Assembly: GCA_016927175.1 (NCBI GenBank)
Contig: JAFGNC010000373.1
Span: forward strand, 1-33,967
Source: Gammaproteobacteria bacterium
GTDB taxonomy: Bacteria; Pseudomonadota; Gammaproteobacteria; Steroidobacterales; Rariloculaceae
Direction of reading: 5' to 3'
Length of the DNA: 33,967 nt
The position numbers and the translations under genes were made by a program. The notes beneath the pieces are model-generated. The model was not told the origin of the DNA. It saw only the letters and a list, made by a program, of their open reading frames with translations, and did not search any database. Below are positions 4,913 to 22,055 of this stretch, in pieces; position 1 is the stretch's first letter, and every line of letters starts with the position of its first letter.

Positions 4913-4934
4913 AGTCTCGAAACCGCTGTCGGCG

Positions 4935-5633
4935 CTACTCGCGCGACATGAACAGGCTGAGCACGTACCAGAACATCAGGGCGATCGACGCGAACAGCTC
5001 GAGCGAGGCCGCGACGTAGCGGTCTTCCGGATAGTGGTGCAGCACGTTCGACGTGTCGTACAGGATCGCCGCGCCCGCGAACGCGATCATCGCAGTCGAG
5101 AACCAGGTGCCCATGTGGAAACCGAAGATCACGCTCGCCACGATCGCGATCAGCGCCAGGATGCCGCCCCACATCAGCAGTCCGCGCAGGAACGAGAAGT
5201 CCTTGCGCGTCAGGAACGCGACGGCCGTCAGCCCGGCCGTGCCGAGCAGCGTGACGCCGGCCGCGCTTTCGATGATCGCCGGCTGCAGGCTGACGGCCAG
5301 GTACAGCAGCGGCACGAAGATAACAGCTTCGGCGACGACGAAGCCGGCCAGCGCCGCATACTGCAGAGGCTTCGAATCGACGCGGTGCGCGACATGGCTC
5401 GCGATCCAGCCGACGATCATGAACGCGCCGAGAATCAGCAGCCAGTTGAAGCCGAGCAGCGCCTGCGCGATCTGCTGCCCGAGGCCGGAGTCGAAAAGCC
5501 AGCTTTCGATCGCGCCGAAGCCGAGGATGGCGCCGGCAAGGTGCATATAGGTGCGCTTGATGAACGTCGACCTCGCTTCGGTGTCGAGCGAGGAGACTGG
5601 CGTGCCGACGCGTAGGGCTTGAGCTTGCTGCAT
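4935..5633 (-). CDS. Bax inhibitor-1/YccA family inner-membrane protein
   Basis: From the internal ATG at 5633: MQQAQALRVGTPVSSLDTEARSTFIKRTYMHLAGAILGF..., followed by about 7 hydrophobic spans and ...ILYDTSNVLHHY... The part of the track ORF upstream of 5633 (to 6698) is antisense to pobA. A 22-nt gap to yqjG suggests co-transcription. Confidence 0.85.
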   Translation of the reverse strand: MQQAQALRVGTPVSSLDTEARSTFIKRTYMHLAGAILGFGAIESWLFDSGLGQQIAQALLGFNWLLILGAFMIVGWIASHVAHRVDSKPLQYAALAGFVVAEAVIFVPLLYLAVSLQPAIIESAAGVTLLGTAGLTAVAFLTRKDFSFLRGLLMWGGILALIAIVASVIFGFHMGTWFSTAMIAFAGAAILYDTSNVLHHYPEDRYVAASLELFASIALMFWYVLSLFMSRE

Positions 5634-5714
5634 CGCGGGACTCCGGAACGTTGAACGGAATCCGATTCTAGCACTCGCGGCCGGTCGTCCGTCGCCGGCG
5701 CCGCGCTGCGCTAG

Positions 5715-7958
<2,244 letters not shown>

Positions 7959-7983
<25 letters not shown>

Positions 7984-8468
7984 TTTTCGACGGAATGCGG
8001 GCCGTGGATCGTCTGCAGGACGAGCACGCCTACGCCGTCCGTCGAGCGGAAGCGATACGCGGCGCCTTTCGGCAACAGCGCCTGGTGGCCCCGCCTGAGC
8101 TTCATCAGCCCCATGCGTCGGCCCTGCGGCGGGGCTTCGAGGCGAATCGAGCCTTCGATGTGGGCCGGCGCGATCCGCTCGGGATCGTCCAGCTTGACGA
8201 GGTCGATCTCCACGGAGCCGTCCATGACGATCACGGACTCGTCATGGGATGCGGTGAACCAGTCGGAGGTCCCTTCCGCCCGCAGCGTTTCGATCACGTA
8301 GCGCAGGTTCTTGCCTACCACGACCTTCTCGTACGGCTTCGCCAGCGATGCCACTTCGAAGACGTTCGAGAACGCGTAGTGCCTGCGGTCGTCGTCGATG
8401 ACCTCGATCCCGCCCTTGACGTAGCTGTCCAGGCTGCCGAAAACCGTTTTCGTGTCCGTGAAGCTCAT
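7959..8468 (-). CDS. Cupin-type dioxygenase small subunit, resembling hydroquinone 1,2-dioxygenase alpha subunit (HapC/PnpC/HqdA-like)
   Basis: 169 aa, MSFTDTKTVFGSLDSYVKGG..., with a single cupin-like core HDESVIVMDGSVEIDL ... RRGHQALLPKGAAYRFRS. It is translationally linked to the 346-aa ORF. Confidence 0.55.
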
Positions 8469-8620
8469 CGGCCCGAAGCGTTCCGCTTGTCCCCGTCAGT
8501 ATACTTGCCGCGCTCCGGTAATGCCGCAGAGGCATAGCCGCTCCGCAAAAAGCATTGGCCGGTGTTGCGGCCGGTGTGGCAAAAGATGACTGCAACGGCC
8601 TGCAAGAAGCCGGAGGGGGA

Positions 8621-9178
8621 GTGGCAGTCGCAGAGACCGCAGCATGGTTTCCGACGTCCGGGCACGGGAGCGGTGAGTTCGTTGCCGCTCTTTTTCGTCG
8701 CCACCGGAAGGCGCTGCTGTGGTATCTGAAGGAGCTCGTCGGATCCCCCGACGAGGCGGAGGACATCCTGCAGGAGGCATTCCTCCGTTTGCTGAGAACC
8801 GCGAAACTCGACGAGGACCTGGTGCGCGCTCGCAATTACCTGTTCAAGACCGCGACGAACATCGCGCGCGACGGCTACCGGCGCAGGCAGTCGCGCCGCG
8901 ACCACCTGCACGTCGCCGTGGAATCGGTAGAGGTCGCGGCCGGCGGTCACGATTTCGGCAGGATGCTCGACGCGCAGCGGGGCGCCTGCGTTCTGCACGC
9001 AGCGCTGAAGGATCTTCTGCCGAGGACGCGCACGGCCTTTCTGCTACATTGGCGTGAGGAAATGACGTACGGCGAGATCGCCGCGGAGCTCGGCGTCAGC
9101 AGGAAAACCATCGAGCGCGATGTCGCGCTGACGCTCGAGGTGTGCCGGTCGCGCATGCAGGAGGGGCGCCATGCTTGA
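8621..9178 (+). CDS. ECF-family RNA polymerase sigma-70 factor
   Basis: Region 2: FVAALFRRHRKALLWYLKELVGSPDEAEDILQEAFLRLL...YLFKTATNIARDGYRRR. Region 4 HTH: LPRTRTAFLLHWREEMTYGEIAAELGVSRKTIERDVALTL. I prefer the GTG 8621 start, 4 nt after GGAGG (8612-8616). The track start is TTG 8555. Confidence 0.85.
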   Translation: MAVAETAAWFPTSGHGSGEFVAALFRRHRKALLWYLKELVGSPDEAEDILQEAFLRLLRTAKLDEDLVRARNYLFKTATNIARDGYRRRQSRRDHLHVAVESVEVAAGGHDFGRMLDAQRGACVLHAALKDLLPRTRTAFLLHWREEMTYGEIAAELGVSRKTIERDVALTLEVCRSRMQEGRHA

Positions 9179-10013
9179 GTTTCTCGGCCGCTTCGCGGCG
9201 GCCGCGGCGATCGCCGCGTGGGCGTTCGCGCCGACCGCGGAGGCACAGCTGAATCTGGTCGGATACTGGAATCCGATTTTTCACGAGGACATCGACGAGC
9301 GGATCCCGGGGCCGTCGGTCGGCGATTTTGCAGGGCTGCCGATCAACGACGCCGCGCGGCTGCGCGCGCAGAGCTGGGACGCATCCCTGCTGTCGATGCC
9401 GGAGCATCAGTGCAAGCCGCACCCGTCGACGTATGGTTTCCGCGGTGTCGGGGTGCTTCGTATCTGGGAGGACCGGGACGAGGACACGCAGCAGCTGATC
9501 AGGATCAACACGCACATCGCGTGGCAGGAGCAGCACCGCGAGATCTGGATGGACGGCCGCGAGCATCCGCCTGCGCATGCGCCGCACACATGGCAGGGGT
9601 TCTCGACGGGTCATTACGAGGGCGACACGCTGGTCGTGCGCACGACGCACCTGAAAGCCGGCTGGGTCCGCCGCAACGGCCTGCCGCTCAGCGATCGCGC
9701 GACGATGACCGACCGCTTCCACCGTTACGGCGACGTGCTGACCCACGTCATGATCGTCGAGGACCCGGTCTATCTGACCGAGCCGCTGGTCAAGACGAAC
9801 GGCTTTCTGCTGTCGCCGAACGGCACTATGACGCCTTACCCGTGCGAGCCCGTCATGGAGGTGCTGCGCGAGCCGGGCGACGTCCCGCACTACCTGCCGG
9901 GGCAGAATCCTTTCATCCGCGAGTTCGCCGAGGAGCACGGCCTGCCGTTCGAAGCGACGCAGGGCGGTGCGGAGACGGCGCTGCCGGAATACATGGAGCA
10001 GCTTCGTGACTGA
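9171..10013 (+). CDS. Secreted protein of unknown function, paralog A of a 4-member family in this window
   Basis: ATG overlaps the sigma stop (ATGCTTGA). Signal peptide MLEFLGRFAAAAAIAAWAFAPTAEA|Q. Shared C-terminal module: WQGFSTGHYEGDTLVVRTTHLKAGWVRRNGLPLSDRATMTDRF...VEDPVYLTEP...PYPCEP. Confidence 0.8.
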   Translation: MLEFLGRFAAAAAIAAWAFAPTAEAQLNLVGYWNPIFHEDIDERIPGPSVGDFAGLPINDAARLRAQSWDASLLSMPEHQCKPHPSTYGFRGVGVLRIWEDRDEDTQQLIRINTHIAWQEQHREIWMDGREHPPAHAPHTWQGFSTGHYEGDTLVVRTTHLKAGWVRRNGLPLSDRATMTDRFHRYGDVLTHVMIVEDPVYLTEPLVKTNGFLLSPNGTMTPYPCEPVMEVLREPGDVPHYLPGQNPFIREFAEEHGLPFEATQGGAETALPEYMEQLRD

Positions 10014-10794
10014 TCGCACTCGACTCGGAGCGCTGGTCGCGGCAGCGGCCCTCGGTGCGTTGCTGACCGGCGCGGCGCCTGCCCTCGCGCAGCGTTTCGG
10101 GCCGCAGCCGCCTCCGCCCGGACCGCCGAGAGAGTCGGCGCCGATCGACCTGACCGGTCAGTGGGTCGCCGTCGTCAACGAGGATTGGCGCTGGCGCATG
10201 GTGACGCCGCCGAAAGGCGATTACGCGAGCGTGCCGCTGAACCCGGAAGGGCGCAGGGTCGCCGACACGTGGGAGCCGTCACGGGACGGCGCCTGCGAGG
10301 CTTACGGCGCGGCGGCTCTGCTGCGCATGCCGACGCGCGTGCGCATCGAGTGGCAGGACGAGGACACGCTGCGGCTTCAGACGGACGCCGGTGCGCAGAC
10401 GCGTCTTCTCGAATTCACGCCGCCCGAGGACGAGCGGCCGCGCTCGCTGCAGGGCACTTCCGTGGCGGAGTGGATCAGGCCGGCGCCGCCGCCCGGCGGC
10501 CCGGGGCTCGCCGGGGCCGGCGGCGGCGCCTCGAGCGGCGGTGGCCATCTCGCTGTCACGACGACGGACCTGCTGCCGGGCTGGCTGCGCCGCAACGGCG
10601 TGCCTTACAGCCAGGACGCGGTCGTGACGGAGTACTTCGATCGGTTCGCGGCTCCGAACGGCGACGAGTGGCTGATGGTCACGACGATCGTCGACGATCC
10701 GGCCTACCTGAACACGCGTTACGTCACGAGCTCTCACTTCAAGCGGGAAGACGATGATTCGAAGTGGAATCCGGTGCCCTGTCGTGCGCGGTGA
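10006..10794 (+). CDS. Secreted protein of unknown function, paralog B (contains a Gly/Pro-rich insert)
   Basis: GTG 10006 overlaps the stop of A (GTGACTGA) and gives VTDRTRLGALVAAAALGALLTGAAPALA|Q. Clear similarity to A: LLPGWLRRNGVPYSQDAVVTEYF / LKAGWVRRNGLPLSDRATMTDRF, VDDPAYLN / VEDPVYLT, PVPC / PYPC. The track start at 9967 adds an Arg-rich extension. Confidence 0.75.
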   Translation: MTDRTRLGALVAAAALGALLTGAAPALAQRFGPQPPPPGPPRESAPIDLTGQWVAVVNEDWRWRMVTPPKGDYASVPLNPEGRRVADTWEPSRDGACEAYGAAALLRMPTRVRIEWQDEDTLRLQTDAGAQTRLLEFTPPEDERPRSLQGTSVAEWIRPAPPPGGPGLAGAGGGASSGGGHLAVTTTDLLPGWLRRNGVPYSQDAVVTEYFDRFAAPNGDEWLMVTTIVDDPAYLNTRYVTSSHFKREDDDSKWNPVPCRAR

Positions 10795-11776
10795 GTGCAG
10801 CACGGCTCCGGCTGCCGTCGTTATCGCCTTGCTGGCCGCCGCGGCTTCGCCTGCGGCGCCCGCACAGAGCGGATTCGGCGACGTCGAGATCGAAACCTGG
10901 CACGTGCGGGACGGGATCTACATGCTGGTCGGCGCCGGCGGCAACGTGACCGTGCAGGTCGGGGAGGACGGCGTGCTGATCGTCGACACGCAGTTCGCCG
11001 AAGTGGGGGACAAGCTGCTCGGGGCGATCAGGGAGCTGTCGGACGGGCCGATCCGCTACATCGTCAATACGCACGCTCATCCCGATCACGTCAGCGGCAA
11101 CGGCGTGCTCGCGCCGGCAGGCAGCACGATTGCCGGAGGGAACGTGGCGGGCGCGATTGCCGACGCCGGCGTCGGGGCGACCGTCATCGCGCACGAGAAC
11201 GTGCTGATCGACATGAGCGGCCAGGACCCCGAGATCCCGTTCGAGGCGTGGCCGACCGATACGTACATCGGCGGGCAGAAGGACCTGTTCTTCAACGGCG
11301 AGGCGGTCCAGATCATGCACCAGCCCGCGGCGCATACCGATGGCGACAGCATCGTTTTCTTCCGGCGCACCGACGTGATCAGCGCCGGCGACGTGTTTTC
11401 CACCACGCTTTACCCGGTGATCCTGCCGGACGGCGGCGGCAGCATCGACGGCGTCGTCGCCGCGCTGAACCGCCTGATCGAGCTGACCGTTCCCGAGGAG
11501 AAGCAGGAGGGGGGCACGATGGTGATTCCCGGGCATGGGCGGCTATCCGACGAAGCGGACGTCGTGGAGTATCGTGATATGGTCACGATCATCCGCGACC
11601 GGATTGCACACATGGTCGAGTCGGGCATGAGCCTCGAGCAGGTCAAGGCCGCCCGCCCCACTCGCGACTACGACGCGCGCTACGGCGCCGACAGCGGTTT
11701 CTGGACCACCGAGCAGTTCGTCGAAGCGGCATACCGAAACTTGGCCGGTAACTCGGCAGAGAAGGGCGGCTTCTGA
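10754..11776 (+). CDS. Secreted MBL-fold metallo-hydrolase
   Basis: Signal-like ...APAAVVIALLAAAASPAAPAQS. HxHxDH motif VNTHAHPDHVSGNG, then AHTDGDS and IPGHG. The start is uncertain (ATG 10754 overlapping gene B, or GTG 10784). Confidence 0.85.
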   Translation: MIRSGIRCPVVRGECSTAPAAVVIALLAAAASPAAPAQSGFGDVEIETWHVRDGIYMLVGAGGNVTVQVGEDGVLIVDTQFAEVGDKLLGAIRELSDGPIRYIVNTHAHPDHVSGNGVLAPAGSTIAGGNVAGAIADAGVGATVIAHENVLIDMSGQDPEIPFEAWPTDTYIGGQKDLFFNGEAVQIMHQPAAHTDGDSIVFFRRTDVISAGDVFSTTLYPVILPDGGGSIDGVVAALNRLIELTVPEEKQEGGTMVIPGHGRLSDEADVVEYRDMVTIIRDRIAHMVESGMSLEQVKAARPTRDYDARYGADSGFWTTEQFVEAAYRNLAGNSAEKGGF

Positions 11777-11811
11777 ACAAGCCCTGCGCCGGCGAACATC
11801 AGGGAAAGGTC

Positions 11812-12720
11812 ATGGCTACCAGAATAGAGAATCGGATCAGGAGCGGGCAGTTCGTCATCACGGCCGAGATCGTGCCGCCGCTGTCGGCGGCGGGTACGCG
11901 TCTGCTCGAGGAGGCCGCGCAACTCGGCGACGGCGTCGACGCGATCAACGTCACCGATGCGGCGGCCGGCAGAACGGCGATGAGCAGTTTCGCCGCCGCG
12001 GCGATCTTGGCCGCCAAGGGGTACGAGCCCGTGCTGCAGGTCACGTGCCGCGACCGTAATCGCATCGCGCTCGCCGGCGATCTGCTCGGAGCCGCGGCGC
12101 AGGGCATCGGCAACCTGCTGATCCTGCACGGCGACGATCCGTCCGGCGGCGACCAGCCCGAAGCGAAGGGCGTGTTCGACCTCGACTCGCGCCAGGTCAT
12201 GCTGCTCGCGAGAACGATGCGCGACGAAGGCAAGCTGCCGTCCGGCCGGGAGATCGAGGAACCGCCGCACTTCTTCATCGGGGGTGCCGACGTCCCTCGC
12301 GATCCGGGACCCGACTTCAGCGCGAAGGGGCTGATCGGCAAGGCGGACGCCGGCGCGAACTTCGTGCAGACGCAGTTCTGCTTCGATCTCGGCGTCGCGC
12401 GGCGCTACATCGAACGTCTGCGTGACGAGGGGCTGATCGAGCGGCTCGGCGTCATCATCGGTGTCGGTCCGATCCGCTCCGCGAAGTCCGCGAGGTGGAT
12501 GAACGAGAACCTGTTCGGCGTGCACGTCCCCGACGATGTGATCCGGCGCCTCGAAGACGCCGACAAGCCCGCCGCCGAGGGGCGGAAGATCTGCGCCGAG
12601 CTGATCGAGGGCCTGCGCGACATCCCCGGCGTGGCCGGCGCTCACATCATGGCGCCGGGCGGGGGGACCGCGGCGATCGCGGAGACGCTGGCGCTGCTGC
12701 CAGTGCGCGACGCGCGCTGA
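11812..12720 (+). CDS. Methylenetetrahydrofolate reductase family protein (non-canonical MetF-like)
   Basis: [51 protein letters not shown] (compare E. coli MetF KVDAGANRAITQFFFD). Confidence 0.8.
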
Positions 12721-12773
12721 CGAAAATTTGCGCGCTCCCGAGTGGCGCGGAAGGTTGGTTGGAGGAGAAACGA

Positions 12774-14354
12774 ATGGTAGCTAAACGCGGATCGTCCGTC
12801 AGTCCGGACGATATCGGCGCAGTCAGATACGATCGGCCGCAGAACGGCGCGGAGTATCTGGAATCATTGAGGGACGGCCGCGAGGTCTACATCTACGGCG
12901 ACCGGGTGGAGGACGTCACGACTCACCCGGCATTCCGCAATACGGCGCGCATGACGGCCCGCCTGTTCGACGCGCTGCACGATCCGGAGCGCAGCGAAAA
13001 GATCCTGCTGCCGACCGACACGGACGGCAGCGGCAGGACACACGCGTTCTTCAAGGCGCCGAAAACGGTCGAGGAGTCGGTTGCCGGCCGCGACGCGATC
13101 GCGGAGTGGCAGCGCATCACCTACGGGTGGATGGGGCGTGCCCCGGACTACAAGGCTTCGTTCCTCGGCACGCTCGGGGGCAACGCGGAGTTCTACGAGC
13201 CCTATCATGAGAACGCGAAGCGCTGGTACACGTATTCGCAGGAGCGCGTGCCCTTCGTGAACCACGCGATCATCCATCCGCCGGTCGACCGGGACAAGCC
13301 GCCCGACCAGGTGGCGGACGTGTGCGTGCACGTGGAGAAAGAGACGGACAGCGGCATCGTCGTGTCCGGGGCGAAAGTCGTCGCGACGGGATCGGTGCTG
13401 ACGAACTACACGTTCATCGCGCATCACGGCCTGATACCGCTCGGCGACAAGAAGTTCGCGCTCGTCTTCATGGTGCCGACGAACGCGCCGGGCGTGAAGT
13501 TTATCTGCCGTACGTCGTACGAGATGACGGCGACGGCCATGGCGAGCCCGTTCGACCAGCCGCTGTCGTCGCGCCTCGACGAGAACGACGCCGTGTTCAT
13601 CATGGACAATGTGTTCATCCCGTGGGAGAACGTGTTCGTCTACGGTGACGTGGAGAAGGCCAACAACTTCTTCCCGCGCACGGGCTTCCTGCCGCGCTTC
13701 GTCGTGCACGGATGCACGCGTCTCGCCGTCAAGCTCGACTTCATCGCCGGACTGCTGCTGAAGGCCGTCGAGGCGGCCGGCACGAAGGACTTCCGCGGCG
13801 TGCAGGCGAACGTCGGGGAGGTGCTCGCGTGGCGCAACATGTTCTGGTCGCTGACGGAAGCCATGGTGCGCAACCCGCAGCCGTGGAAGGGCGACTATCT
13901 GCTGCCGAACATGGATCCGGGCAACGCATACCAGATACTCGCGACGATCGCTTATTCGAAGATCAAGTACATCATCGAGCAGACGGTCGCGTCGGGCCTG
14001 ATCTACCTGAACTCGCATACGCGCGATTTCGCGAACCCCGAGATCCGGCCGTACATCGACAAGTACATGCGGGGCTCCAACGGCTACACGGCCGAGCAGC
14101 GCGCGAAGCTGATGAAGCTGCTGTGGGACTGCATCGGCACGGAGTTCGGCGCACGCCACGAGCTTTACGAGATCAACTACGGCGGCAGCACGGAGGAGAT
14201 CCGGCGTTACGCGCTGTTCAGCGCGATGGGTAACGGCAATGCCGAGCGGCTGCGAGGATTTGCCGAGCAGTGCATGGAGGAGTACGACCTGAACGGCTGG
14301 ACGGTGCCCGATCTGATCAATCCCGACGACCTGTCGGTGCACAACAGGAAATAG
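12774..14354 (+). CDS. HpaB-family (group D) FADH2-dependent aromatic monooxygenase, oxygenase component
   Basis: ATG 12774 follows GGAGGAG (12761-12767). MVAKRGSS...[33 protein letters not shown]...[10 protein letters not shown]...[22 protein letters not shown]... is typical of 4-hydroxyphenylacetate/phenol 3-hydroxylase large components. The track ORF start at 12495 lies inside the MTHFR gene. Confidence 0.85.
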
Positions 14355-14392
14355 TGAGCAAAGACTTGCGCAGCGGGGGGTGAGCTGCGGCG

Positions 14393-14439
14393 GAGAGGGC
14401 AGGCGGAGGCACGAGTGATCGGGCCGAAGCCGCCCTCTC
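14393..14439 (+). terminator. Possible terminator hairpin after the HpaB-like gene (no U-run)
   Basis: GAGAGGGCaGGC (14393-14404) pairs with GCCGCCCTCTC (14429-14439), with one bulged A and a loop of about 24 nt. Confidence 0.3.
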
Positions 14440-14707
14440 GCGCCTTCCGGGAGACCTGGCCCCGGGGCGGTAGAGCGGCATCAAACTAACCCATTATTGG
14501 GTTTGCAATTGCCCGCCTGACCCTATCCGCCAGGGAAAGTCGATGGCCCGAACAACGCGCTACGGCGTCGTGATGGGCTGCGTTCTGCGCATTTTCGCCT
14601 CTACTCGCAGCAGCTCGAAACCATCCGCAGCGCGCTGACGCTGGATCGGCTCCGGCCTCGTTGGGTAGTGAAACGCCGGGGCGTTGTCGCGCAGCGATCG
14701 GTCGAGC

Positions 14708-16468
14708 TCACTCCGGCAGCGCGAACACGTACAGGTTGTTCGCCGTTCCGGGCCGAAGCTCGGGGGTCAGCCGCGTCACGCCGAAGCTGTTCGGCGTGGC
14801 GCCGGTGCTGATCGCGACGTACTGCCGGCCGTCCGCCTCGAACGTGACGGGGAAGCCGGTCACGGACGAGCCGAGATTCACTTCCCACAGCACTTCGCCC
14901 GTGCTCGCGTCGTAGGCGCGGAACCGGCCCGCGACGTCGCCGCCGAAGACGAGCCCGCCTGCCGTCGACATCAGCGACGTCGTGCCGGAGCGATTCTCGA
15001 TCTTCCAGGCCGTCGCGCCGGTCGAGACGTCGATGGCCTCGATCGTGCCGACGTTGCGCTCGCCAGGCGCGATCTGATCGCGCCCGCGGACGGCATACAG
15101 ATCGTCCGGGCTCGGCGTTTCGGACGTCGACGTCATCTCGGAGCACGTGTTCTGGAGCGGGTAGTACATCAGGCCCGTGTCCGGGCTGTACGTGCCCGTG
15201 GGATAGTTCTTTCCGCCCGTCAGGGCAGGACACACGAGCCGCTCCTGACCCGCGGCCGTGAACAGAGTGTCCGGATTCACGGTCGCGGCCCCCGACTCGA
15301 CATTGATGTCTTCGATCACGTTCTGGTGAATGGTCGGCCGCGCCCACAGGAACTGGCCGGTCTCGCGATCGAGCGTGTACACGACGCCGGTTTTGCCGGG
15401 GATGCCGGTCAGCACTTTGCGCGTCTCGCCGGAGCGCACGCGCGGATTGATCCACGTGACGTCGTCGGGATCCGGTGCGACCACCGTGTCGACGATCAGC
15501 CGCTCGAACGGATGGTCGAGATCCCAGTGATCCACGACGTGCTGGAAGTACCACTCGATCTCGCCGGTGTCCGCGTTCAGCGCGAGCGTCGAGTTGTGGT
15601 ACAGGTACTGCTCGTCGTTGCCCGCCAGCATGAACTTCGGTGCCGGCGACGTCACGGACGTGCCGACGTAGACGAGGTTCAGCTCCGGGTCGAAGCTCGG
15701 CACCATCCACGCGCCGACGTGTTTTCGCTCCTCGTACGGGATGTCGCCCCACGTCTCGTCGCCGGGCTCGCCCGGCGCCGGAATCGTGCGCGTTCTCCAC
15801 AGTTCCTCGCCGGTGTCGGCGTCGAAGGCGGTGATGACGCACGCTTCGGGTCCGCCTTCGGGCTCGCAACCGCGACTGGAGATCACCTTGCCGTTCGCGA
15901 CGATCGGGCCGGACGTGTGCTGCGCGCCGCGGCGGTAGTCGAGTATCTGCGTCTCCCACGCGACCTCGCCCGTGCGCGCGTCGAGCGCGTAGGCATAGTT
16001 GTCCGTGCCGTTGTCGAACAGCAGCGTGCCGTGGATCGCGAGGTTGCGGTTGATCGACGGGACCGGGAAATACTCGGCGGCGTCGTCGGGCTGCGGACGG
16101 CGGTATTCCCAGATCAGGTCGCCCGTCGTCGCGTCGATCGCCTGCGTCACGTCGCTCGGGCCTGGAAAGTACATGATGCCGTCGTAGACGAGGGGCGTGC
16201 CTTCCTGGACTCCGATGCTGAGCGGCCGCGTCCACACGAGCGCGAGGTTGCCGACGTTGCCGCGGTCGATCTGCGTCAGCGGACTATGCCCCCAGTGATT
16301 CAGCGTGCGCCGCCACATCAGCCAGTCGGCCGGGTCGGGATTCTGCAGCATCTCGTCGGTGACCGGCTCGAAATCCGCGATGGCCGGCGCCTCGGACGTC
16401 TGAGCCAGCGCGAGACTCCCCGCCAGCGCGGCGGAGACGGACGTGAACAGCAACGACAGGCGGGTCAT
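14708..16468 (-). CDS. PQQ-dependent dehydrogenase (methanol/ethanol quinoprotein family), periplasmic, non-canonical
   Basis: ATG 16468 lies 6 nt after GGAGGA. Signal MTRLSLLFTSVSAALAGSLALA|Q. Eight-bladed propeller hallmarks: repeated DA(T/R)TG(E/D)..W, LNLVYVGT, FQHVVDHWDLD, AIDVSTGATAW, AYDASTGEVLW. The track start at 16747 adds an implausible extension. Confidence 0.9.
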   Translation of the reverse strand: MTRLSLLFTSVSAALAGSLALAQTSEAPAIADFEPVTDEMLQNPDPADWLMWRRTLNHWGHSPLTQIDRGNVGNLALVWTRPLSIGVQEGTPLVYDGIMYFPGPSDVTQAIDATTGDLIWEYRRPQPDDAAEYFPVPSINRNLAIHGTLLFDNGTDNYAYALDARTGEVAWETQILDYRRGAQHTSGPIVANGKVISSRGCEPEGGPEACVITAFDADTGEELWRTRTIPAPGEPGDETWGDIPYEERKHVGAWMVPSFDPELNLVYVGTSVTSPAPKFMLAGNDEQYLYHNSTLALNADTGEIEWYFQHVVDHWDLDHPFERLIVDTVVAPDPDDVTWINPRVRSGETRKVLTGIPGKTGVVYTLDRETGQFLWARPTIHQNVIEDINVESGAATVNPDTLFTAAGQERLVCPALTGGKNYPTGTYSPDTGLMYYPLQNTCSEMTSTSETPSPDDLYAVRGRDQIAPGERNVGTIEAIDVSTGATAWKIENRSGTTSLMSTAGGLVFGGDVAGRFRAYDASTGEVLWEVNLGSSVTGFPVTFEADGRQYVAISTGATPNSFGVTRLTPELRPGTANNLYVFALPE

Positions 16469-16527
16469 CGGGCATCCTCCGCGGGGTGATTCGCCGCATC
16501 TTACCAGTATCGCGTCGCCCGGCTGTT

Positions 16528-16554
16528 CAGCAACGGAATCGAAAGGGGTTGCTG
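16528..16554. promoter_or_regulatory. Inverted repeat CAGCAAC-N13-GTTGCTG in the divergent PQQ-DH / paralog C control region
   Basis: cagcaac at 16528-16534 and gttgctg at 16548-16554, a perfect 7-bp dyad. This is a candidate operator or 5'-UTR hairpin. Confidence 0.3.
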
Positions 16555-16616
16555 CTATGATTCCTGATGCCACGGACGCTCCGACAGCAGCGTACCGGCC
16601 TATTTCGGGGGAGCAC

Positions 16617-17537
16617 ATGACGGACATTCGCACATCCTCTGGCAGGAGCGCCTTGCAGCGGCGGGCTCGGCTGCTCGCGCTCGCGGCGGCGGCCGCCGCC
16701 GTGCCGGCCGCGGCCGACATCAGCCTGCCCGACGGCAAGGAAGGCATGCAGGCCCTCGGCCGCGCGCATCCGACTGCAGAGGCTCTTTACGAGCATTTCA
16801 GGGAACAGGCCGACGGCGGCGATCGCGTCGCGCCGGACGACATGCCGGACTGGTCGGGCGTCTACTCGCGCGGCGGGATCATCTTCAACTTCGACCCCGA
16901 TCAGGGCACGGACCGCCTGCCGACCGCGAAGCTGACGGAGGAGTACGAGCAGCGCCTCTCCGAGAAGCTCGATCGGCTGGAACGCGGTATCGAGTACGAC
17001 CGGTTGAGCGAGTGCGCGCCGCCGGGTCATCCGCGCTGGCTGACGGAGCCCTTCCTGCGCGAGTTCGTGCCGACACCGGATCAGACATGGCTGATCAACG
17101 AGATGGTCAACGACATCCGGCGCGTGTATACGGACGGTCGCGGCCACGTGCCGGAGGCCGACCGCTACCCGCTGTACAACGGAGATTCGATCGGCTTCTG
17201 GGACGAAGGCAGGCTCGTCGTGCACACGAACCAGCTGATGGCGGGGCAGTACCAGCGCACGCAGCCGGATTATTCGGAACAGGTCGAGACGGTCGAGATC
17301 TGGGAGAAGGTCGACGAGCGCAACCTCGTCGCGCACGTCTGGGTGTACGATCCGCCGGCGCTCGAGGAGCCCTGGTACGCGAAGCAGACCTACACGAAGC
17401 TCAGCGACCCCGATCGTCGCCTGCGCATTCGGTACTGGCACTGCGACGAGAATCCCAACAACGAGGTGGAGCGGACCGACGAAGGGTCTTCGCAGTTTCG
17501 GGACTTCACCTTCACGGACGAAGACGACTCCCCCTAG
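16617..17537 (+). CDS. Secreted protein of unknown function, paralog C
   Basis: MTDIRTSSGRSALQRRARLLALAAAAAAVPAAA (RR-containing, possibly Tat). Family module: SECAPPGHP ... YNGDSIGFWDEGRLVVHTNQL ... VYDPPALEEP ... YWHCDEN. The alternative start is ATG 16557. Confidence 0.75.
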   Translation: MTDIRTSSGRSALQRRARLLALAAAAAAVPAAADISLPDGKEGMQALGRAHPTAEALYEHFREQADGGDRVAPDDMPDWSGVYSRGGIIFNFDPDQGTDRLPTAKLTEEYEQRLSEKLDRLERGIEYDRLSECAPPGHPRWLTEPFLREFVPTPDQTWLINEMVNDIRRVYTDGRGHVPEADRYPLYNGDSIGFWDEGRLVVHTNQLMAGQYQRTQPDYSEQVETVEIWEKVDERNLVAHVWVYDPPALEEPWYAKQTYTKLSDPDRRLRIRYWHCDENPNNEVERTDEGSSQFRDFTFTDEDDSP

Positions 17538-17569
17538 GGAAGCTCCGCGGGGGCTGTGCAGAGCTTCCC
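17537..17569. terminator. Bidirectional terminator hairpin between convergent genes C and D
   Basis: GGGAAGCTC (17537-17545) / GAGCTTCCC (17561-17569), a 9-bp perfect stem with a 15-nt loop, in the 47-nt convergent spacer. No clear U-run. Confidence 0.5.
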
Positions 17570-17584
17570 TGGCGCACCGAAGGG

Positions 17585-18673
17585 CTACTCGAACAGCTCC
17601 GAGTAGTCCTTCATGTTCTCGGCGCAGACGTATTCGCCGATTTCCCACTCCGGATGCAGCACGAGGTCGCCCCGGTATTCGACCGGCTCGGCGAACACGT
17701 TCGGGTCGGTGACGACGGCCTGGTATTCGATGACGTCGCGCGACGTGCGGCGGTAGCGCTCCGTGACGCGCATGGCCTCGGTGTGCCGATGCCCGCTGAC
17801 GATCGTCTTGTCGTTGAAGCTCGACACCTCGACGACCAGCGTGTCCCCGTCCCAGCGTCCGACCGAATAACCCATCCACAACGGGTCGAGATCGTCCGGC
17901 GCGCTCCTGCCGATCGGAATGATCCTGAACAGGTTATAGGCCTCGTACAGAATCACGACCACGTCGGGCCGCGCGACGATCTGCAGCGGATAGGGCATCA
18001 TCGTCGCGGCCGGCACGCCCGGCGGCAGACACAGCGCGCCCTGGCCGAGATCGTCGTCCCGTTGCGGCACGCGGAAACGCTCGGCGCCAGGGCGCAGCGA
18101 CACCGGATCGGCGAGCCGTACGCCGCGGCCGCCGAGGTAGACGCCGGACAGGTCGGGTTTACCGTCGGCGAGGCGCGGTATGTCGCGTTGCCGCGCGTCC
18201 GGCTCGGCGGACGATACCGCCGCGGGCACCGCGCCTTCGACCGTGACCGTCACGGATTCGCGTTCCTCGCCGTCGGAGCCGGTCACGGTCAGCGTATAGG
18301 TCGTCGTGCGAGCGGGCGTGACGGTGGCCGAGCCGCGCGTCGCGACGGCGCCGACGTCGGGTGCGATGGTCAGCGAAAAGGCGTTCAGACCTTCCCACGT
18401 AAGGGTCGTGCTGTCGCCGGCCCGGAGCCGGGCCGGCTCTGCGCGAAACGACACGATCTCGGCCGGCGGCCCCTGCGGCGCCTCGCCGGGGAAGCCGGTC
18501 GGCGGCGGCGCCTGCGCGCCGGCGCAGGCGCACCAGGCGACAGCGGCGGTCAGAATCGACGCGACGGCCGCCGCGTGCCGGCGATGGCGCGCGCCGCCGG
18601 CGCGGCGCGCGTTCGGGCTCGCGGCGCACGCGTCAAGACGCTCGGCGTTCGCGGACAGATGTCGGGCGCGCAC
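17585..18673 (-). CDS. Secreted protein, N-terminal Ig-like beta-sandwich domain + paralog D of the unknown family
   Basis: The track ORF (to 18943) would overlap the DUF6152-like gene. GTG 18673 lies 7 nt after GAGGG and gives VRARHLSAN...RHAAAVASILTAAVAWCACAGA. Ig-like: IVSFRAEPARLRAGDSTTLTWEGLNAFSLTIAPDVGAV...TTTYTLTVTG. Family module: ALCLPPGVP ... WMGYSVGRWDGDTLVVEVSSF ... VTDPNVFAEP ... EYVCAEN. Confidence 0.7.
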   Translation of the reverse strand: MRARHLSANAERLDACAASPNARRAGGARHRRHAAAVASILTAAVAWCACAGAQAPPPTGFPGEAPQGPPAEIVSFRAEPARLRAGDSTTLTWEGLNAFSLTIAPDVGAVATRGSATVTPARTTTYTLTVTGSDGEERESVTVTVEGAVPAAVSSAEPDARQRDIPRLADGKPDLSGVYLGGRGVRLADPVSLRPGAERFRVPQRDDDLGQGALCLPPGVPAATMMPYPLQIVARPDVVVILYEAYNLFRIIPIGRSAPDDLDPLWMGYSVGRWDGDTLVVEVSSFNDKTIVSGHRHTEAMRVTERYRRTSRDVIEYQAVVTDPNVFAEPVEYRGDLVLHPEWEIGEYVCAENMKDYSELFE

Positions 18674-18696
18674 GCTCGAGCCCTCGACACGCACGA

Positions 18697-19107
18697 TCAG
18701 ACCCTCGACCAGACGCGCAGCTGCGTGCCGTCGTCGAGCTCGACGATCGCACCGCGCATCGCGGGGGCGCCCGACTTCGCCGGCGCACCCGTGCACTTGA
18801 TCGTGTCGCCCGCTTCGACCGTGCTCTGACGCCAGCCGTAGCGGCGCAGCAGCACTGGCGGGTCGAGCTCCATGGACCACTCGACGAGGGTGCCGTCGTC
18901 CTGCTGGGCCTCGAAGAACACGAAAACGTGCGGGCTCGTCCACTCGACTCGCGACACGACGCCTTCGACGTCGATCAGGTTGTCGGTGTCGTACATCGCG
19001 ATCGAATGGTGCGCGGCGGCCGGCGCCGCGGAGGCGAGCGCGCAGAGCAGGACCGGGATGAGCCTGCCGGCGCGCTGCGTCCGGCTCGTCTTCTTCGTGT
19101 CGTTCAT
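18697..19107 (-). CDS. DUF6152-like small secreted protein
   Basis: MNDTKKTSRTQRAGRLIPVLLCALASAAPAAA|HHSIAMYD...VEGVVSRVEWTSPHVFVFF...RRYGWRQSTVEAGDTI. The AHHS(F/I)A..D ... W.(N/S)PH pattern is what I recall for DUF6152 proteins. Confidence 0.7.
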   Translation of the reverse strand: MNDTKKTSRTQRAGRLIPVLLCALASAAPAAAHHSIAMYDTDNLIDVEGVVSRVEWTSPHVFVFFEAQQDDGTLVEWSMELDPPVLLRRYGWRQSTVEAGDTIKCTGAPAKSGAPAMRGAIVELDDGTQLRVWSRV

Positions 19108-19140: not shown

Positions 19141-19692
19141 TCAATCCGCGCGGCCGTCCGGCACCTCCTCGCCGAGCTCGACCGTCGGGGGATGATAACC
19201 TCTCGCGGCCAGCCACTCCCGAAGCGCCGGGCCCGTGCCCCGGGGCCAGGGCTTCAGCTTCGCGATCGGCACTTCCTTGTAGTCGGTCAGCTCCTCCTCG
19301 CACAGCCGGATCGGGCCGGGTCCGCCGCGGACGTGGTAAGCGAAAATGATCTGATTCAGCCGCTCGAAGGGGTAGGCGCCGAGGTATTCGCCGAGCTCGG
19401 CCGGGATGCCGATCTCCTCCTCGACCTCGCGCAGCACGGCGGCTTCCGGCGTCTCGTCCGGCTCGAGGAAACCGGTCACGAGGGCGTACCAGCTGTCGGG
19501 CCAGCCGCGGCTGCGGACGAGCACCACGCGCTCGTCCCGCTCGACGATCGCGGCAACCACCGGTATTGGATTGTCCCAGTGTACGAAGCCGCACCCCGTG
19601 CGCGGGCAGGCGAGCCGCATCCTGCCGCCGCGCATTTCCTCGCCGAGCTCCTCGCGGCAGAGCGGGCAGTACCGGTACCGGGAGCGGCTCAT
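19141..19692 (-). CDS. NUDIX hydrolase with N-terminal zinc ribbon
   Basis: Internal ATG 19692 forms an ATGA overlap with the methyltransferase stop. CPLC...CPRTGC zinc ribbon. Perfect NUDIX box GFLEPDETPEAAVLREVEEEIGI (Gx5Ex7REVxEExGI). Confidence 0.9.
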   Translation of the reverse strand: MSRSRYRYCPLCREELGEEMRGGRMRLACPRTGCGFVHWDNPIPVVAAIVERDERVVLVRSRGWPDSWYALVTGFLEPDETPEAAVLREVEEEIGIPAELGEYLGAYPFERLNQIIFAYHVRGGPGPIRLCEEELTDYKEVPIAKLKPWPRGTGPALREWLAARGYHPPTVELGEEVPDGRAD

Positions 19693-20453
19693 CCCCTCGG
19701 CCGTTCGAGCAGGTGCGAAAAGTAAAGGGTTTCGCCGGACTCGAAACGGCTGAAGGCGCGGTAGCCGACGACCCCGCTCCAGTCCCTGTATTGCTCGCGC
19801 ATCTCGGCCGGCATCGCGTCCACGATGGCTTCCCGCCGCGGGCTGTCGCGGCGCAGGGCCTCGAGCACGTTCGCGGTGATGTTGCGCCGCTCGAGCAGCG
19901 CGAAGCCGGCGCCCGCGAGATCGGCTGTGCAGTCGTCGTCCTTCCAGCAGCCGTCGACATAGCAGAACCGGCCGCCCGGACGCAGCACGCGGAAAACCTC
20001 GTCGAAGAATGCTTTTCTGTCGTCGTACAGGTGCGACGCCTCGATGTTGACCGCCACGTCGAATGACGCGTCGGCGAACTCGAGCGACTCGGCGTTGCCG
20101 ACACCGAACTCGAGATTGCCTGCATGATGGAGCGCCGTTGCGATGCGGATGTTCTCGGCGCTGACGTCGACGCCGACGTAGCGCCGCGGCCCGAAAGTCT
20201 TGGCCAGAAAAGCCGCGCCGCCCCCGCGGCCGCAGCTGATTTCGAGCACGTCGCGGCCGTTCAGAACGGTATCGCGCACGGCGTGCTCGTACAGACGCAG
20301 GCAATAGACCTCGGGCGCACCGTCGGCGACGACGGAATCGTCCGACGGCGCGCAATAGCCGTAGTTCATCAGCGAGAAATCGGGCGCGGAAGCGGCGGCC
20401 TGGTCGTAGTGCGCGCGCGCCGCGTCGGCTCGAGTCGCCGGCGAATCGCTCAT
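19689..20453 (-). CDS. Class I SAM-dependent methyltransferase
   Basis: Motif I VLEISCGRGGGAAFL, then VGVDVS and RVLRPGGRF. The N-terminal SLMNYGY..., ...LYEH pattern resembles small-molecule O/C-methyltransferases. Confidence 0.85.
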   Translation of the reverse strand: MSDSPATRADAARAHYDQAAASAPDFSLMNYGYCAPSDDSVVADGAPEVYCLRLYEHAVRDTVLNGRDVLEISCGRGGGAAFLAKTFGPRRYVGVDVSAENIRIATALHHAGNLEFGVGNAESLEFADASFDVAVNIEASHLYDDRKAFFDEVFRVLRPGGRFCYVDGCWKDDDCTADLAGAGFALLERRNITANVLEALRRDSPRREAIVDAMPAEMREQYRDWSGVVGYRAFSRFESGETLYFSHLLERPRG

Positions 20454-20484: not shown

Positions 20485-21873
20485 TCAGCTGCGCCGCACG
20501 TACATCTGCATTCCGTAGCGCGGGTGCATCGTCGTGCCGGCTGCCTGCGCGACCTTGTGCCCCGGCACGAGCTCGAGCACGTAGCGTTGCGCGAGCTGCG
20601 CGACCGCGAGCTTCAGCTCCGTCATCGCCATGGACCCGCCGATGCAGTTGCGGTGACCGGCCGCGAACGGAATGAACGCGAACCGCGGTCTTGCGGCCGA
20701 GTTCTGCGGCTCGAAGCGCTCCGGATCGAAACGGTGCGGATCTGGCCACAGCTGCGGCAGGCGATGCACCGCGTACAGGGACACGTAGATCGTCGAGCCC
20801 GCCGGTATAGCGTAGCCGCCGATCGTGTCGTCTTCCAGCGCGACGCGGGAGATCGAATGAATCGGAGAGTACAGGCGCAGCGATTCGTTGACGACCTGCT
20901 CCGTGTAGAGGAGAGCGTCGACGTCCTCCGCAGCGGGCACTCGCGAGCCCACGACCGTTTCGACCTCCTGTTTCAGCTTCGCCCTGACTTCGGGGTGCTC
21001 GTGCAGCAGGTAGTGGATCCACGTCAGCGAGGCCGAGGACGTCTCGTGGCCCGCGAAGAACAGCGTCAGAAGCTGCGCGCGCAGCGACTCGGGCGGGAAC
21101 TCGTCGCCCTGCTCGCGGCTCGCCTGCACGAGTTGGCCGAGCACGCCGCAATCCTCGAAATTCCCCGGCCGCTCCGACTCGATGTACTCGTAAACGCAGG
21201 CGTCGATGTCCCGCACGGCACGCTCGAGCTGCGGCGTCCAGCCGTCGGATCTCCGCACCAGCGCGTGGATCGCGCTTTTCGGCGGCAGGGGCCACAGGTT
21301 CTTGATCTCGACGGCGGCGCGGCAGAAACGGTCCGCGATGCGCTCGAAACCCGGGCCCATCAGATAGCGCCCCGCTATGCGCTGCGAAAGGTCCAGGAAC
21401 TCCGATTCCGTATCGACGGCGATGCCTTGGTCGGCGACTCGTTCCCAGCGGTCGAGGAAGCTCGAGATATCCTGCGCCATCCAGGATACCTGGCGAGCCA
21501 CGTAGTCGGCCTTGAACGTCGGCTGGGTGATCAGCCGCTGCCGCTTCCACGCGTCGCCCTCTGTCAGCAGCAGCCCTTCGCCGAGCACTTCGACCGCGAC
21601 GCGGTAGCGCGTGTTTTTGCGGTACCTGCGCCTTTTCGTGACGAGCAGCTCGTACAGCAGGTCCGGATCGGAGATCAGGTAGACGTGGCGCCCCTTCAGC
21701 GGCACTCGGGCGATGCCGCCGTAGCGCACGGCGATGCCGTGCCAGAACTTCATCGGATTGCGCAGAAGTCCGTCCAGGCAGCCGAAGTACGGCAAGCCCT
21801 TCGGGCCGGGCGGTGTGACGTCTGAAACGCCATCCAGATGCTCCGCCCGCGTAGCGGGATGATTGCGTGCCAC
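20485..21873 (-). CDS. Cytochrome P450
   Basis: GTG 21873 lies 6 nt after GGAGGGGGG. N-terminal PPGPKGLPYFG. I-helix FFAGHETSS, ExxR ESLRLYSP, heme loop FIPFAAGHRNCIGGSMA. Confidence 0.9.
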   Translation of the reverse strand: MARNHPATRAEHLDGVSDVTPPGPKGLPYFGCLDGLLRNPMKFWHGIAVRYGGIARVPLKGRHVYLISDPDLLYELLVTKRRRYRKNTRYRVAVEVLGEGLLLTEGDAWKRQRLITQPTFKADYVARQVSWMAQDISSFLDRWERVADQGIAVDTESEFLDLSQRIAGRYLMGPGFERIADRFCRAAVEIKNLWPLPPKSAIHALVRRSDGWTPQLERAVRDIDACVYEYIESERPGNFEDCGVLGQLVQASREQGDEFPPESLRAQLLTLFFAGHETSSASLTWIHYLLHEHPEVRAKLKQEVETVVGSRVPAAEDVDALLYTEQVVNESLRLYSPIHSISRVALEDDTIGGYAIPAGSTIYVSLYAVHRLPQLWPDPHRFDPERFEPQNSAARPRFAFIPFAAGHRNCIGGSMAMTELKLAVAQLAQRYVLELVPGHKVAQAAGTTMHPRYGMQMYVRRS

Positions 21874-21906
21874 GGCTGCCCCCCCTCCAGCTGCGTGAAT
21901 GGACCG

Positions 21907-21960
21907 CCTTCGCCGGCCATGCCGGCGCCGGAACGCGGCGCCGGCGGACTGCGGCGAAGG
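21907..21960. repeat. Two-tier GC-rich palindrome/hairpin in the P450-metY divergent region
   Basis: Outer arms CCTTCGCC (21907-21914) / GGCGAAGG (21953-21960). Inner perfect arms GCCGGCGCCG (21921-21930) / CGGCGCCGGC (21936-21945), with loop gaacg. Confidence 0.6.
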
Positions 21961-22055
21961 TTGCCGCACGGGTCCCCGGCCGGCGGCCATTTGCTTTCGA
22001 CAGTATCTGTCAGCAAGCTAGTAAAAGACAACGAACGCACCGGAGACTATAGTCA

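Follow-up and report, generated by a model that had tools for sequence, protein, structure and literature searches.

What do four related genes of no recognized family do within 10 kb of one bacterial contig, and do their products work together? The genes, which we call A, B, C, and D, lie on contig JAFGNC010000373.1 (assembly GCA_016927175.1) of a gammaproteobacterium of the Rariloculaceae; the whole stretch of 33,967 nucleotides that was analyzed is referred to here as the window. An original prediction, read from the letters of the DNA, had described the four as divergent paralogs of a secreted protein family with two conserved cysteines, and had treated them as one system placed beside genes for an extracytoplasmic function (ECF) sigma factor, a pyrroloquinoline quinone (PQQ) dehydrogenase, a P450, and a DUF6152-like protein. 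We find that A–D are divergent members of a very large unnamed secreted family carried by uncultured Gammaproteobacteria and Acidobacteriota of soil and sediment. Rather than one system, we observe two conserved units, one consisting of A, B, and a gene for a secreted metallo-β-lactamase (MBL)-fold protein (A-B-MBL) and the other of a DUF6152 gene and D (DUF6152-D). It is likely that A and B act with the MBL-fold protein and that D acts with the DUF6152 protein.

A, B, C, and D Are Homologous

The four genes are arranged as follows:

9171–10013, plus strand: gene A, 280 aa; ribosome-binding site GGAGGGG; Cys81 and Cys225; GxW motif at G31 and W33; long conserved C-terminal tail
10006–10794, plus strand: gene B, 262 aa; GTG start; Cys97 and Cys259; divergent paralog of A
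16617–17537, plus strand: gene C, 306 aa; ribosome-binding site GGGGGAG; Cys133 and Cys276; divergent to the PQQ dehydrogenase gene
17585–18673, minus strand: gene D; leader, Ig/PKD-like domain, and predicted barrel; Cys215 and Cys350; GTG start

An open reading frame (ORF) was found at each of the positions originally given for A–D. The strand of D, which had been left unstated, is minus, and an alternative GTG start for this gene at 18694 lies two bases past the DUF6152 stop codon. The GC content of the window is ~67% (range, 64%–73%), and the frame-specific GC3 of A, B, C, and D (0.81–0.86) is as expected of genuine genes at that GC content. Each protein begins with a basic stretch, followed by a hydrophobic stretch and an AxA-like site, and from these leader sequences A–D appear to be secreted. 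B contains a Gly/Pro-rich insert within its central hairpin.

The all-vs-all alignment that had been proposed with the original prediction established that A–D are homologous and that the paralogs are divergent. By BLASTP, A matched B with E = 6e-19 (28.5% identity over 228 aa), and the A–D, C–D, and A–C comparisons gave 3e-9, 9e-9, and 1e-5, respectively; B–C was marginal (0.007), and the direct comparison of B with D was not significant. A hidden Markov model (HMM) built from A-type homologs only, when run against all six-frame ORFs of the window, recovered B (4e-34), D (3e-13), and C (5e-13), with a clear gap to noise (the next-best ORF had an E value of 0.45). We also compared family alignments that had been collected independently for A, C, and D. 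Here hhalign gave 97.4% for A against D (E = 1.4e-11, 140 columns), 97.2% for A against C (E = 3e-11), and 95.8% for D against C (E = 7e-9, 181 columns). The profile alignments begin ahead of the first cysteine and extend as far as the last, and the module common to all four proteins comprises ~180 residues.

Chance or compositional similarity among high-GC, Ala/Gly/Pro-rich ORFs, with no true family behind it, could account for the lack of a significant B–D match and for the marginal B–C match in direct BLASTP comparisons. The remaining pairs are significant, however, the profiles link all four proteins with E values between 1e-9 and 1e-34 that are cleanly separated from noise, A, C, and D each have more than 2,000 homolog clusters, and two independent structure models yielded the same fold (see below). 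This explanation, to which we assign next to no probability, is already refuted.

The three sequence blocks and both cysteines that had been picked out by eye line up in a 93-sequence superfamily alignment. In D numbering, G268 and D323 are invariant in this alignment, and D174, G177, C215, P217, H258, S270, W274, G276, L279, E305, P324, P330, and C350 are at least 90% conserved. The superfamily signature reads D-x-x-G ... C-x-P ... H-P ... G-x-S-x-G-x-W-x-G-x-x-L ... E ... D-P ... P ... C. The conserved two-cysteine feature was thus upheld, with both Cys columns at or above 90% conservation. A, B, and C contain exactly two cysteines each, and D contains two outside its leader. Among ~225 A-type sequences, 196 have both cysteines, 13 have neither, and 16 have only one (Fisher p = 1e-11, without correction for phylogeny), and this paired retention and loss is the pattern expected for a disulfide pair.

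The Shared Module Is Predicted to Form a Calycin-like Barrel

We modeled A and D with AlphaFold2 from input alignments of 56 and 93 sequences, respectively. The model of A (predicted local distance difference test [pLDDT] 93.9, predicted template modeling score [pTM] 0.87) comprises, in order, a leader helix, a strand at residues 31–36 that contains G31-x-W33, an insert of ~55 residues made up of short helices and including C81, ten more strands between residues 96 and 214, and a confidently predicted C-terminal tail of coil and helix that includes C225. The C-terminal extension is probably pinned to the helical insert via a disulfide, to judge from the cysteine pattern of the sequences. In the model of D (pLDDT 84.5), the barrel occupies residues 177–339, and three short helices stand where A has its insert. 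The strand counts, which are predictions only, are 11 consecutive strands for A and ~9 plus short bridges for D; calycins are defined by a closed antiparallel barrel of 8–10 strands in an up-and-down arrangement.

When the models were compared with the PDB using Foldseek, the top 14 matches for A were FABP, CRBP, UnaG, and SAHS proteins, and avidins appeared lower in the list. These matches are weak (E ~2e-3, probability up to 1.0, template modeling [TM] score 0.5–0.6 normalized to the target). The barrel of D matched CRABP2, FABP, and nitrophorin, which ranked after a few immunoglobulin (Ig)-domain matches to the N-terminal domain of the protein. Whether the fold is lipocalin- or calycin-like had been posed as a question in the original prediction, and AlphaFold2 and Foldseek together indicate, weakly, a calycin-like barrel. 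According to these models, the module is a calycin-type, FABP-like barrel in a large, decorated version without a close solved relative. The GxW motif of the first strand is strongly conserved in the A type (G31 in 228 of 229 sequences, W33 in 227 of 230); the equivalent segment is LTGQW (GxW) in B and SGVY (GxY) in both C and D. Calycins also have a conserved Arg or Lys close to the end of the barrel, packed over the Trp of this motif, for which the invariant K162, R167, and R168 of the A type are candidates.

An Ig-like domain had also been predicted in D. Residues 72–146 of the AlphaFold2 model form seven strands with pLDDT >90, and Foldseek matched them to the PKD domain of 1l0q with a probability of 1.0, which supports the presence of an Ig/PKD-like domain; the score of D against the Pfam PKD profile PF00801 was 17.1 bits, below the cut-off of 23.5. 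From the alignments and models together, we hold with high confidence that A–D represent a real family with a shared module, a calycin-like fold, and a conserved cysteine pair.

The predicted antiparallel barrel is the feature that the module has in common with FABP, CRBP, CRABP, and UnaG and with the wider calycins (lipocalins, avidins, and nitrophorins), which provided the best PDB barrel matches for both models. As in FABPs, the first strand of A carries GxW and is separated from the remaining strands by a helical insert. In contrast, there is no detectable sequence relationship to FABPs, and A–D carry secretion leaders, whereas FABPs are cytosolic. A–D are also larger (260–360 aa, compared with ~130 aa for FABPs), with an insert of ~55 rather than ~20 residues and a conserved C-terminal tail of 65 residues. 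Their family further differs from FABPs in its conserved cysteine pair, its many invariant charged residues, and its obligate occurrence with other proteins, as gene pairs or as fusions.

The Family Is Large and Matches No Named Family

Word-seeded homolog searches, in each of which 8,000 candidates were scored and from which the counts are lower bounds, yielded, at 90% identity, at least 5,512 clusters for A, at least 5,200 for D, and at least 2,329 for C. An exhaustive phmmer search of A against 1.84 billion representatives gave 4,780 clusters (50% identity) at E ≤ 1e-3, of which 364 reached E ≤ 1e-30. The carriers are almost all uncultured metagenome-assembled genomes; they include Steroidobacteraceae, Rariloculaceae, and Pseudohongiellaceae among the Gammaproteobacteria and Vicinamibacterales, Bryobacterales, and Solibacteraceae among the Acidobacteriota. 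Several genomes have more than one A-type locus, and A-type proteins of different phyla are 55%–72% identical.

In the homolog tables of A, C, and D, every name supplied by the source is "hypothetical protein," and no precomputed Pfam domain is present on any homolog among the matches listed. The earlier statement that the module could not be attached to a characterized family held up in sequence and profile searches of Pfam, NCBIfam, and the PDB, all of which were without a match. No profile in a 2025 copy of Pfam-A matched A–D even at E ≤ 10, apart from the sub-threshold PKD match of D, and the barrel module was unmatched by Pfam in all 93 family members. The profile for FABPs and cytosolic lipocalins (PF00061) matched neither A–D at E ≤ 10 nor the barrel in the 93 members. 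NCBIfam release 20 contained no profile that matched the barrel module, and only noise came back from PDB searches that used A, D, DUF6152, or two family alignments as queries. A literature search for a combination of calycin and MBL folds found nothing relevant.

A and B Are Linked to a Secreted MBL-Fold Protein

The genes on either side of A and B are as follows:

8555–9178, plus strand: ECF sigma factor with Sigma70_r2 and r4 domains; its stop overlaps the start of A
10754–11776, plus strand: secreted MBL-fold protein, directly after B; PF00753, 51 bits

The MBL-fold gene downstream of B, which was overlooked in the original prediction, is the strongest partner of A and B as judged by both gene order and gene fusion. 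In the window, the ECF and A reading frames overlap by 8 nt, A and B by 8 nt, and B and the MBL-fold gene by 41 nt if the latter starts at ATG 10754. We surveyed 80 loci recovered with the A-type alignment, of which 68 could be evaluated for downstream partners. An MBL-fold gene was located within 3 kb downstream of A on the same strand in 59 of the 68, B was downstream of A in 42, and both were present in 41, the loci coming from two phyla. Close gammaproteobacterial relatives show the order A-B-MBL and Acidobacteriota the order A-MBL-B, and some genomes have two or three cassettes in tandem (L023, L055, and L065).

Fusions make the same connection. The 150 best-scoring 50%-identity representatives include 31 A-MBL fusions and two A-B fusions; for instance, A is joined to a homolog of the window's MBL-fold protein in P0124, P0126, P0131, and P0133 (~600 aa) and to B in P0125 (501 aa). 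The linkers are hydrophilic and without a signal-peptide-like stretch in 20 of 20 full-length fusions, which indicates that these are true fusions and not a read-through of two secreted genes. A separate case is P0184 (611 aa), in which a tannase/feruloyl-esterase fragment precedes the A domain; it is possibly a gene-call merger and was not used as evidence, but it may instead reflect a genuine connection with the hydrolysis of aromatic esters.

The neighbors named in the original prediction were less constant around the A type. The ECF sigma factor (3 of the 80 loci) and the P450 (0 of 80) showed no conserved linkage, and linkage to the PQQ dehydrogenase was loose (12 of 80). HpaB was found in 12 and DUF6152 in 10 of the 80 loci, counted anywhere in the locus. 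The ECF-A order with its stop/start overlap (ATGCTTGA) recurs only in L004, L005, and L007, and a LysR regulator replaces the ECF sigma factor upstream of A in L001 and L002; the ECF sigma factor is a lineage-specific regulator of the A-B-MBL operon. No anti-sigma gene adjoins it in the window. The idea that A is itself the anti-sigma factor was rejected on the basis of the architecture of A and the co-occurrence in only 3 of 80 loci.

In one Acidobacteriota-type locus (L167, 11944–13266), the cassette is followed by genes for a major facilitator superfamily transporter and a sulfite-oxidase-like molybdoenzyme. This molybdoenzyme, a single case, is a possible hint of sulfur-containing substrates.

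The MBL-fold protein of the window is 340 aa long, and a Pfam scan found no domain in it besides MBL (the PF00753 cut-off is 22.7 bits). Its set of metal ligands (HxHxDH...H...D...H) is complete and consists of HAHPDH at residues 107–112, H194, D213, and H261. This exact pattern is present in 55 of 118 aligned MBL rows, many of the others being partial sequences or fused forms, and most of the free-standing partners keep the canonical ligands. The fused domains often have S/G-x-D-x-D-H, in which the first two His of HxHxDH are replaced. Most metal ligands are gone from the fusions P0131, P0154, P0183, P0202, and P0252, and near-degenerate motifs in fused domains include SDENHDQR, TGDYNDGR, and SDSSHDSK. 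Fused MBL domains with such altered motifs may be pseudo-enzymes or may have a remodeled metal site. The A domain that is joined to a degenerate MBL domain retains essentially all of the ~20 invariant polar residues of its type. These proteins confirm that the association of A with MBL matters even without MBL catalysis, and the retention of the polar residues makes it more likely that the barrel is where the function resides.

A search of the PDB with the MBL-fold protein returned only an unnamed MBL (8d2z), the alkylsulfatase SdsA1, and β-lactamases; the match to SdsA1 was weak (E = 3.7e-6) and covered residues 47–151, the N-terminal half of the MBL domain. An identity as a methyl-parathion hydrolase, which was considered with regard to p-nitrophenol-type neighbors, found no such match in this search.

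D Is Linked to DUF6152, and C Belongs to the Same Neighborhood

The genes around C and D are as follows:

14708–16468, minus strand: PQQ-dependent dehydrogenase, methanol/ethanol family; PF01011, 200 bits; TIGR03075, 353 bits, below cut-off
18697–19107, minus strand: DUF6152 protein; PF19649, 91 bits (gathering threshold, 27)
about 19141–19800, minus strand: NUDIX
19689–20453, minus strand: methyltransferase
20485–21990, minus strand: P450

Domain matches confirmed the presence of all four of the neighbors that had been named (ECF sigma factor, PQQ dehydrogenase, P450, and DUF6152). We surveyed 80 metagenomic loci of the D type, 51 of which could be evaluated for the position of DUF6152. The predicted linkage of D to DUF6152 was recovered: in 33 of the 51 loci, D is directly preceded by a DUF6152 gene on its own strand, and in some of the remaining loci the two are adjacent in another orientation. 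Tandem arrays of several DUF6152-barrel pairs also occur. The DUF6152-D gap in the window is 2–23 nt, depending on the start of D, and in A-type loci 9 of 13 DUF6152 matches lie within 800 bp of a barrel gene. Linkage of D to the P450 was not recovered (a match in 1 of 35 D-type loci among the matches listed). PQQ dehydrogenase genes are more common beside D than beside A, with synteny in L003, L164, L165, and L088–L100. The closest orthologs of D keep most of its neighbors, namely the PQQ dehydrogenase, the methyltransferase, DUF6152-D, NUDIX, and C, and a P450 is present in L096 and L164. C is a satellite of this second, PQQ-dehydrogenase-rich neighborhood.

An alignment of 92 unique DUF6152 sequences revealed a conserved predicted signal-peptidase site between Ala and HHS, together with a conserved PH and a conserved Glu. 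The predicted mature N-terminal His-His suggests a metal site. A literature search found no paper on DUF6152, and the family has no structure. An apparent DUF6152-barrel fusion (L165, 9575–10570) has a garbled middle; it was judged to be a frameshift artifact of long-read assembly and was counted as adjacency only.

Several variants of the arrangement were observed. L001 (14637–16193, minus strand) encodes a 518-aa double barrel beside a DUF6152 gene, in which each module has its own cysteine pair and GxW motif. A second C-type paralog with a lipoprotein-like leader (LAAC) follows C in L164 (7928–8836) and L165 (7923–8864), where the window has one C. An arylamine N-acetyltransferase gene (PF00797) stands beside the methyltransferase, DUF6152-D, and NUDIX genes in L003 (8716–9519), L164 (9419–10231), and L165 (12078–12890); none was found among the window genes scanned, the scan covering part of the window.

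Genes for Aromatic Catabolism Flank the A-B-MBL Cassette

Aromatic catabolic genes occupy 3926–8468 and 11812–14354, on either side of the cassette:

3926–4975, minus strand: glutathione S-transferase (GST)
5715–6950, plus strand: FAD monooxygenase
6943–8468, minus strand: PnpCD-type hydroquinone 1,2-dioxygenase; two ORFs, with a Pfam match for the large subunit only
11812–12720, plus strand: MTHFR-like protein
12774–14354, plus strand: HpaB-family flavin-dependent phenol hydroxylase with HpaB_N and HpaB domains; TIGR02310, 701 bits, below the cut-off of 885

The same set of genes recurs in L001, L004–L007, and L045, and in these loci, which are the closest relatives of the window, HpaB comes directly after the cassette. 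This context suggests that, in the sublineage of the window, a periplasmic step releases or captures a phenolic compound.

A Possible Role in Binding or Presenting Small Molecules

A, B, and the secreted MBL-fold protein, encoded in one translationally coupled operon, would most likely form a periplasmic complex, and D, which would be co-transcribed with the small secreted DUF6152 protein, is most likely its functional partner. We propose that, within the periplasm, a small molecule is bound by the barrel, which hands it to, or takes it from, the partner protein. The ligand would be anionic, as proposed from the invariant Arg, Lys, and His residues, and possibly aromatic; a phenolic product would then be imported and fed to the adjacent HpaB hydroxylase and the hydroquinone ring-cleavage genes. 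That the barrel is a small-molecule-binding or presenting subunit is a reading that we favor only tentatively, its probability being at best about even. Binding or presentation of a hydrophobic or aromatic substrate, as first suggested, would be plausible. The A type has ~20 charged or polar residues that are invariant, and these point to a polar or anionic site, or to catalysis; the basic cluster formed by H160, K162, R167, and R168 would suit an anionic ligand.

Two known systems offer partial parallels for the MBL-fold partner. The MBL-type (class III) alkylsulfatase SdsA1 (PDB 2CFU) combines an MBL catalytic domain with an SCP2-like hydrophobic-ligand domain that recruits the substrate, and it thus resembles the proposed arrangement, in which an MBL catalytic unit would be fused or adjacent to a separate small-molecule-binding domain. 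The accessory domain considered here is an N-terminal calycin barrel, however, rather than a C-terminal SCP2 domain, and the MBL-fold protein of the window has no dimerization or SCP2-like domain and is closer to SoxH-like proteins. Its best-scoring named relatives are the SoxH-related "quinoprotein relay system zinc metallohydrolases" (TIGR04558 and TIGR04559), such as PP_2678 of the Pseudomonas ped cluster. Like the partner of A and B, these hydrolases are secreted and are found near PQQ dehydrogenases, but the score of the partner against its best NCBIfam profile, TIGR04559, falls far below the cut-off (96.8 vs. 280 bits). In ped-type systems, moreover, the hydrolase is paired with a SoxYZ-like carrier and not with calycin barrels. 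A literature search for "quinoprotein relay system" found a single table entry, and that source (PMC12997753) calls the MBL of the system uncharacterized.

Some of our observations weigh against a passive binding role. The fold matches from which it is argued are weak (Foldseek E ~1e-3, query-normalized TM 0.25–0.33). Conservation of the A type is higher than would be usual for a passive binder, given the 55%–72% identity between phyla and the ~20 invariant charged or polar residues, and these residues persist in fusions in which the MBL metal ligands are mostly lost, which fits the barrel as the active part. No MBL-fold gene is nearby in 9 of the 68 evaluable A-type loci. Because the context beyond the cassette is variable, HpaB and PnpCD can suggest the substrate for the gammaproteobacterial sublineage only.

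The strongest of the alternatives is that the barrel itself is the enzyme and that the MBL-fold protein and DUF6152 are auxiliary or scaffolding. Allene oxide cyclase, violaxanthin de-epoxidase, and lipocalin-type prostaglandin D synthase are enzymes with a calycin fold. The invariant residues of the A type (E39, D40, R44, H84, D128, R130, H132, S145, T146, H160, K162, R167, R168, D175, D198, E204, and E230) could supply an active site, a His, a Ser within GxSxG, a Glu, and an Asp being invariant throughout the superfamily; the high identity between phyla and the survival of the polar residues in P0131, P0154, P0183, P0202, and P0252 despite the loss of MBL ligands also agree with catalysis by the barrel. 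We nevertheless consider an enzymatic barrel rather unlikely. No known catalytic motif or family was matched in Pfam or NCBIfam, both barrel models have binding proteins as their structural neighbors, and the GxSxG of the AlphaFold2 model of A sits inside a β strand and not at a nucleophile elbow; in addition, the free-standing MBL partners, that of the window included, keep a complete binuclear metal site, which points to MBL as the catalyst. A role in metal handling would make the barrels and DUF6152 periplasmic metal binders or metallochaperones that load the MBL-fold protein or the PQQ dehydrogenases, for which the calycin-like periplasmic zinc protein ZinT/YodA would be the model. Although the recurrent partners and neighbors are metalloproteins, the predicted mature DUF6152 has a conserved His-His-Ser, PH, and Glu, and the barrel has His, Glu, and Asp residues that are conserved superfamily-wide, only a single His is conserved across the superfamily, searches of the PDB and Pfam gave no similarity to ZinT or any metal-binding family, and A stays fused to MBL domains without ligands, lineages in which it is unlikely to serve as an MBL chaperone. 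Metal loading is therefore improbable in our view.

Still less probable, to the point of being a long shot, is that A is a periplasmic signal sensor that controls the upstream ECF sigma factor, in the manner of VtrC or ToxS. VtrC and ToxS are periplasmic bile-salt sensors with a calycin fold (PMC4933562 and PMC10624426), and the first of these papers provides a precedent for such a sensor. VtrC and ToxS resemble A–D in being secreted bacterial calycin-type barrels that act only with a partner protein; their partners are membrane transcription factors, however, whereas those conserved in the present family are DUF6152 and the MBL-fold protein, and a regulator is linked only in particular lineages. 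The 8 nt overlap of the ECF stop with the A start, the absence of an adjacent anti-sigma gene, and the ECF-A order in L004, L005, and L007 are consistent with a sensor. On the other hand, an ECF sigma factor occurs in just 3 of 80 A-type loci and gives way to LysR in L001 and L002, A has neither an anti-sigma domain nor a membrane anchor besides its leader, and a sensor role leaves the MBL fusions unexplained. We retain, as the preferred reading, a barrel that binds or presents a small molecule. A broader proposal, which we regard as doubtful and put on a par with the enzymatic barrel, is that the barrels, MBL-fold proteins, and DUF6152 make up an unrecognized modular periplasmic enzyme system that is abundant in uncultured soil Acidobacteriota and Gammaproteobacteria. 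The barrel would be its specificity-determining or catalytic part, and paralog expansion would diversify the substrates. It is equally doubtful that this expansion proceeds via tandem cassettes, double barrels, PKD fusions, and remodeled-MBL fusions, with conjugated phenolics as the substrates in the lineage of the window.

We conclude that the family of A–D is new and lacks annotation, that its fold class is known, and that its partnerships are new; A–D are neither members of a named family nor a categorically new system. The family is large, strongly conserved, and common in dominant uncultured soil bacteria, and it has been without a Pfam or NCBIfam model, a solved structure, or a literature. 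It now has a fold assignment, a sequence signature, and two concrete partners, with one of the partnerships backed by fusions. What had been a "hypothetical protein" becomes a testable three-protein periplasmic system of A, B, and the MBL-fold protein. For DUF6152, and for the as yet unstudied SoxH-like secreted MBL-fold proteins that occur near PQQ dehydrogenases, the linkages also offer a first clue to function. Should the connection with HpaB and hydroquinone cleavage be true, the system may be where the turnover of soil phenolic conjugates begins outside the cytoplasm. Uncharacterized domain families are commonly found; the size of this family, its dominance in soil phyla, and its fusion-backed unit make it a good experimental target.

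Other Features of the Window

The A-type HMM, run against all six-frame ORFs, detected no fifth copy of the family in the window. We rejected a candidate frameshifted paralog on the minus strand at 33.3–33.9 kb (two frames, E = 0.45 and 0.84) because the minus-strand frames are stop-rich and one long plus-strand ORF covers the region. The translation of this plus-strand ORF, read by eye, is putatively aminotransferase-like. The PQQ dehydrogenase of the window contains HWDLDHP, and D-x-D at this position is, we presume, a mark of lanthanide-dependent enzymes of the XoxF/PedH type.

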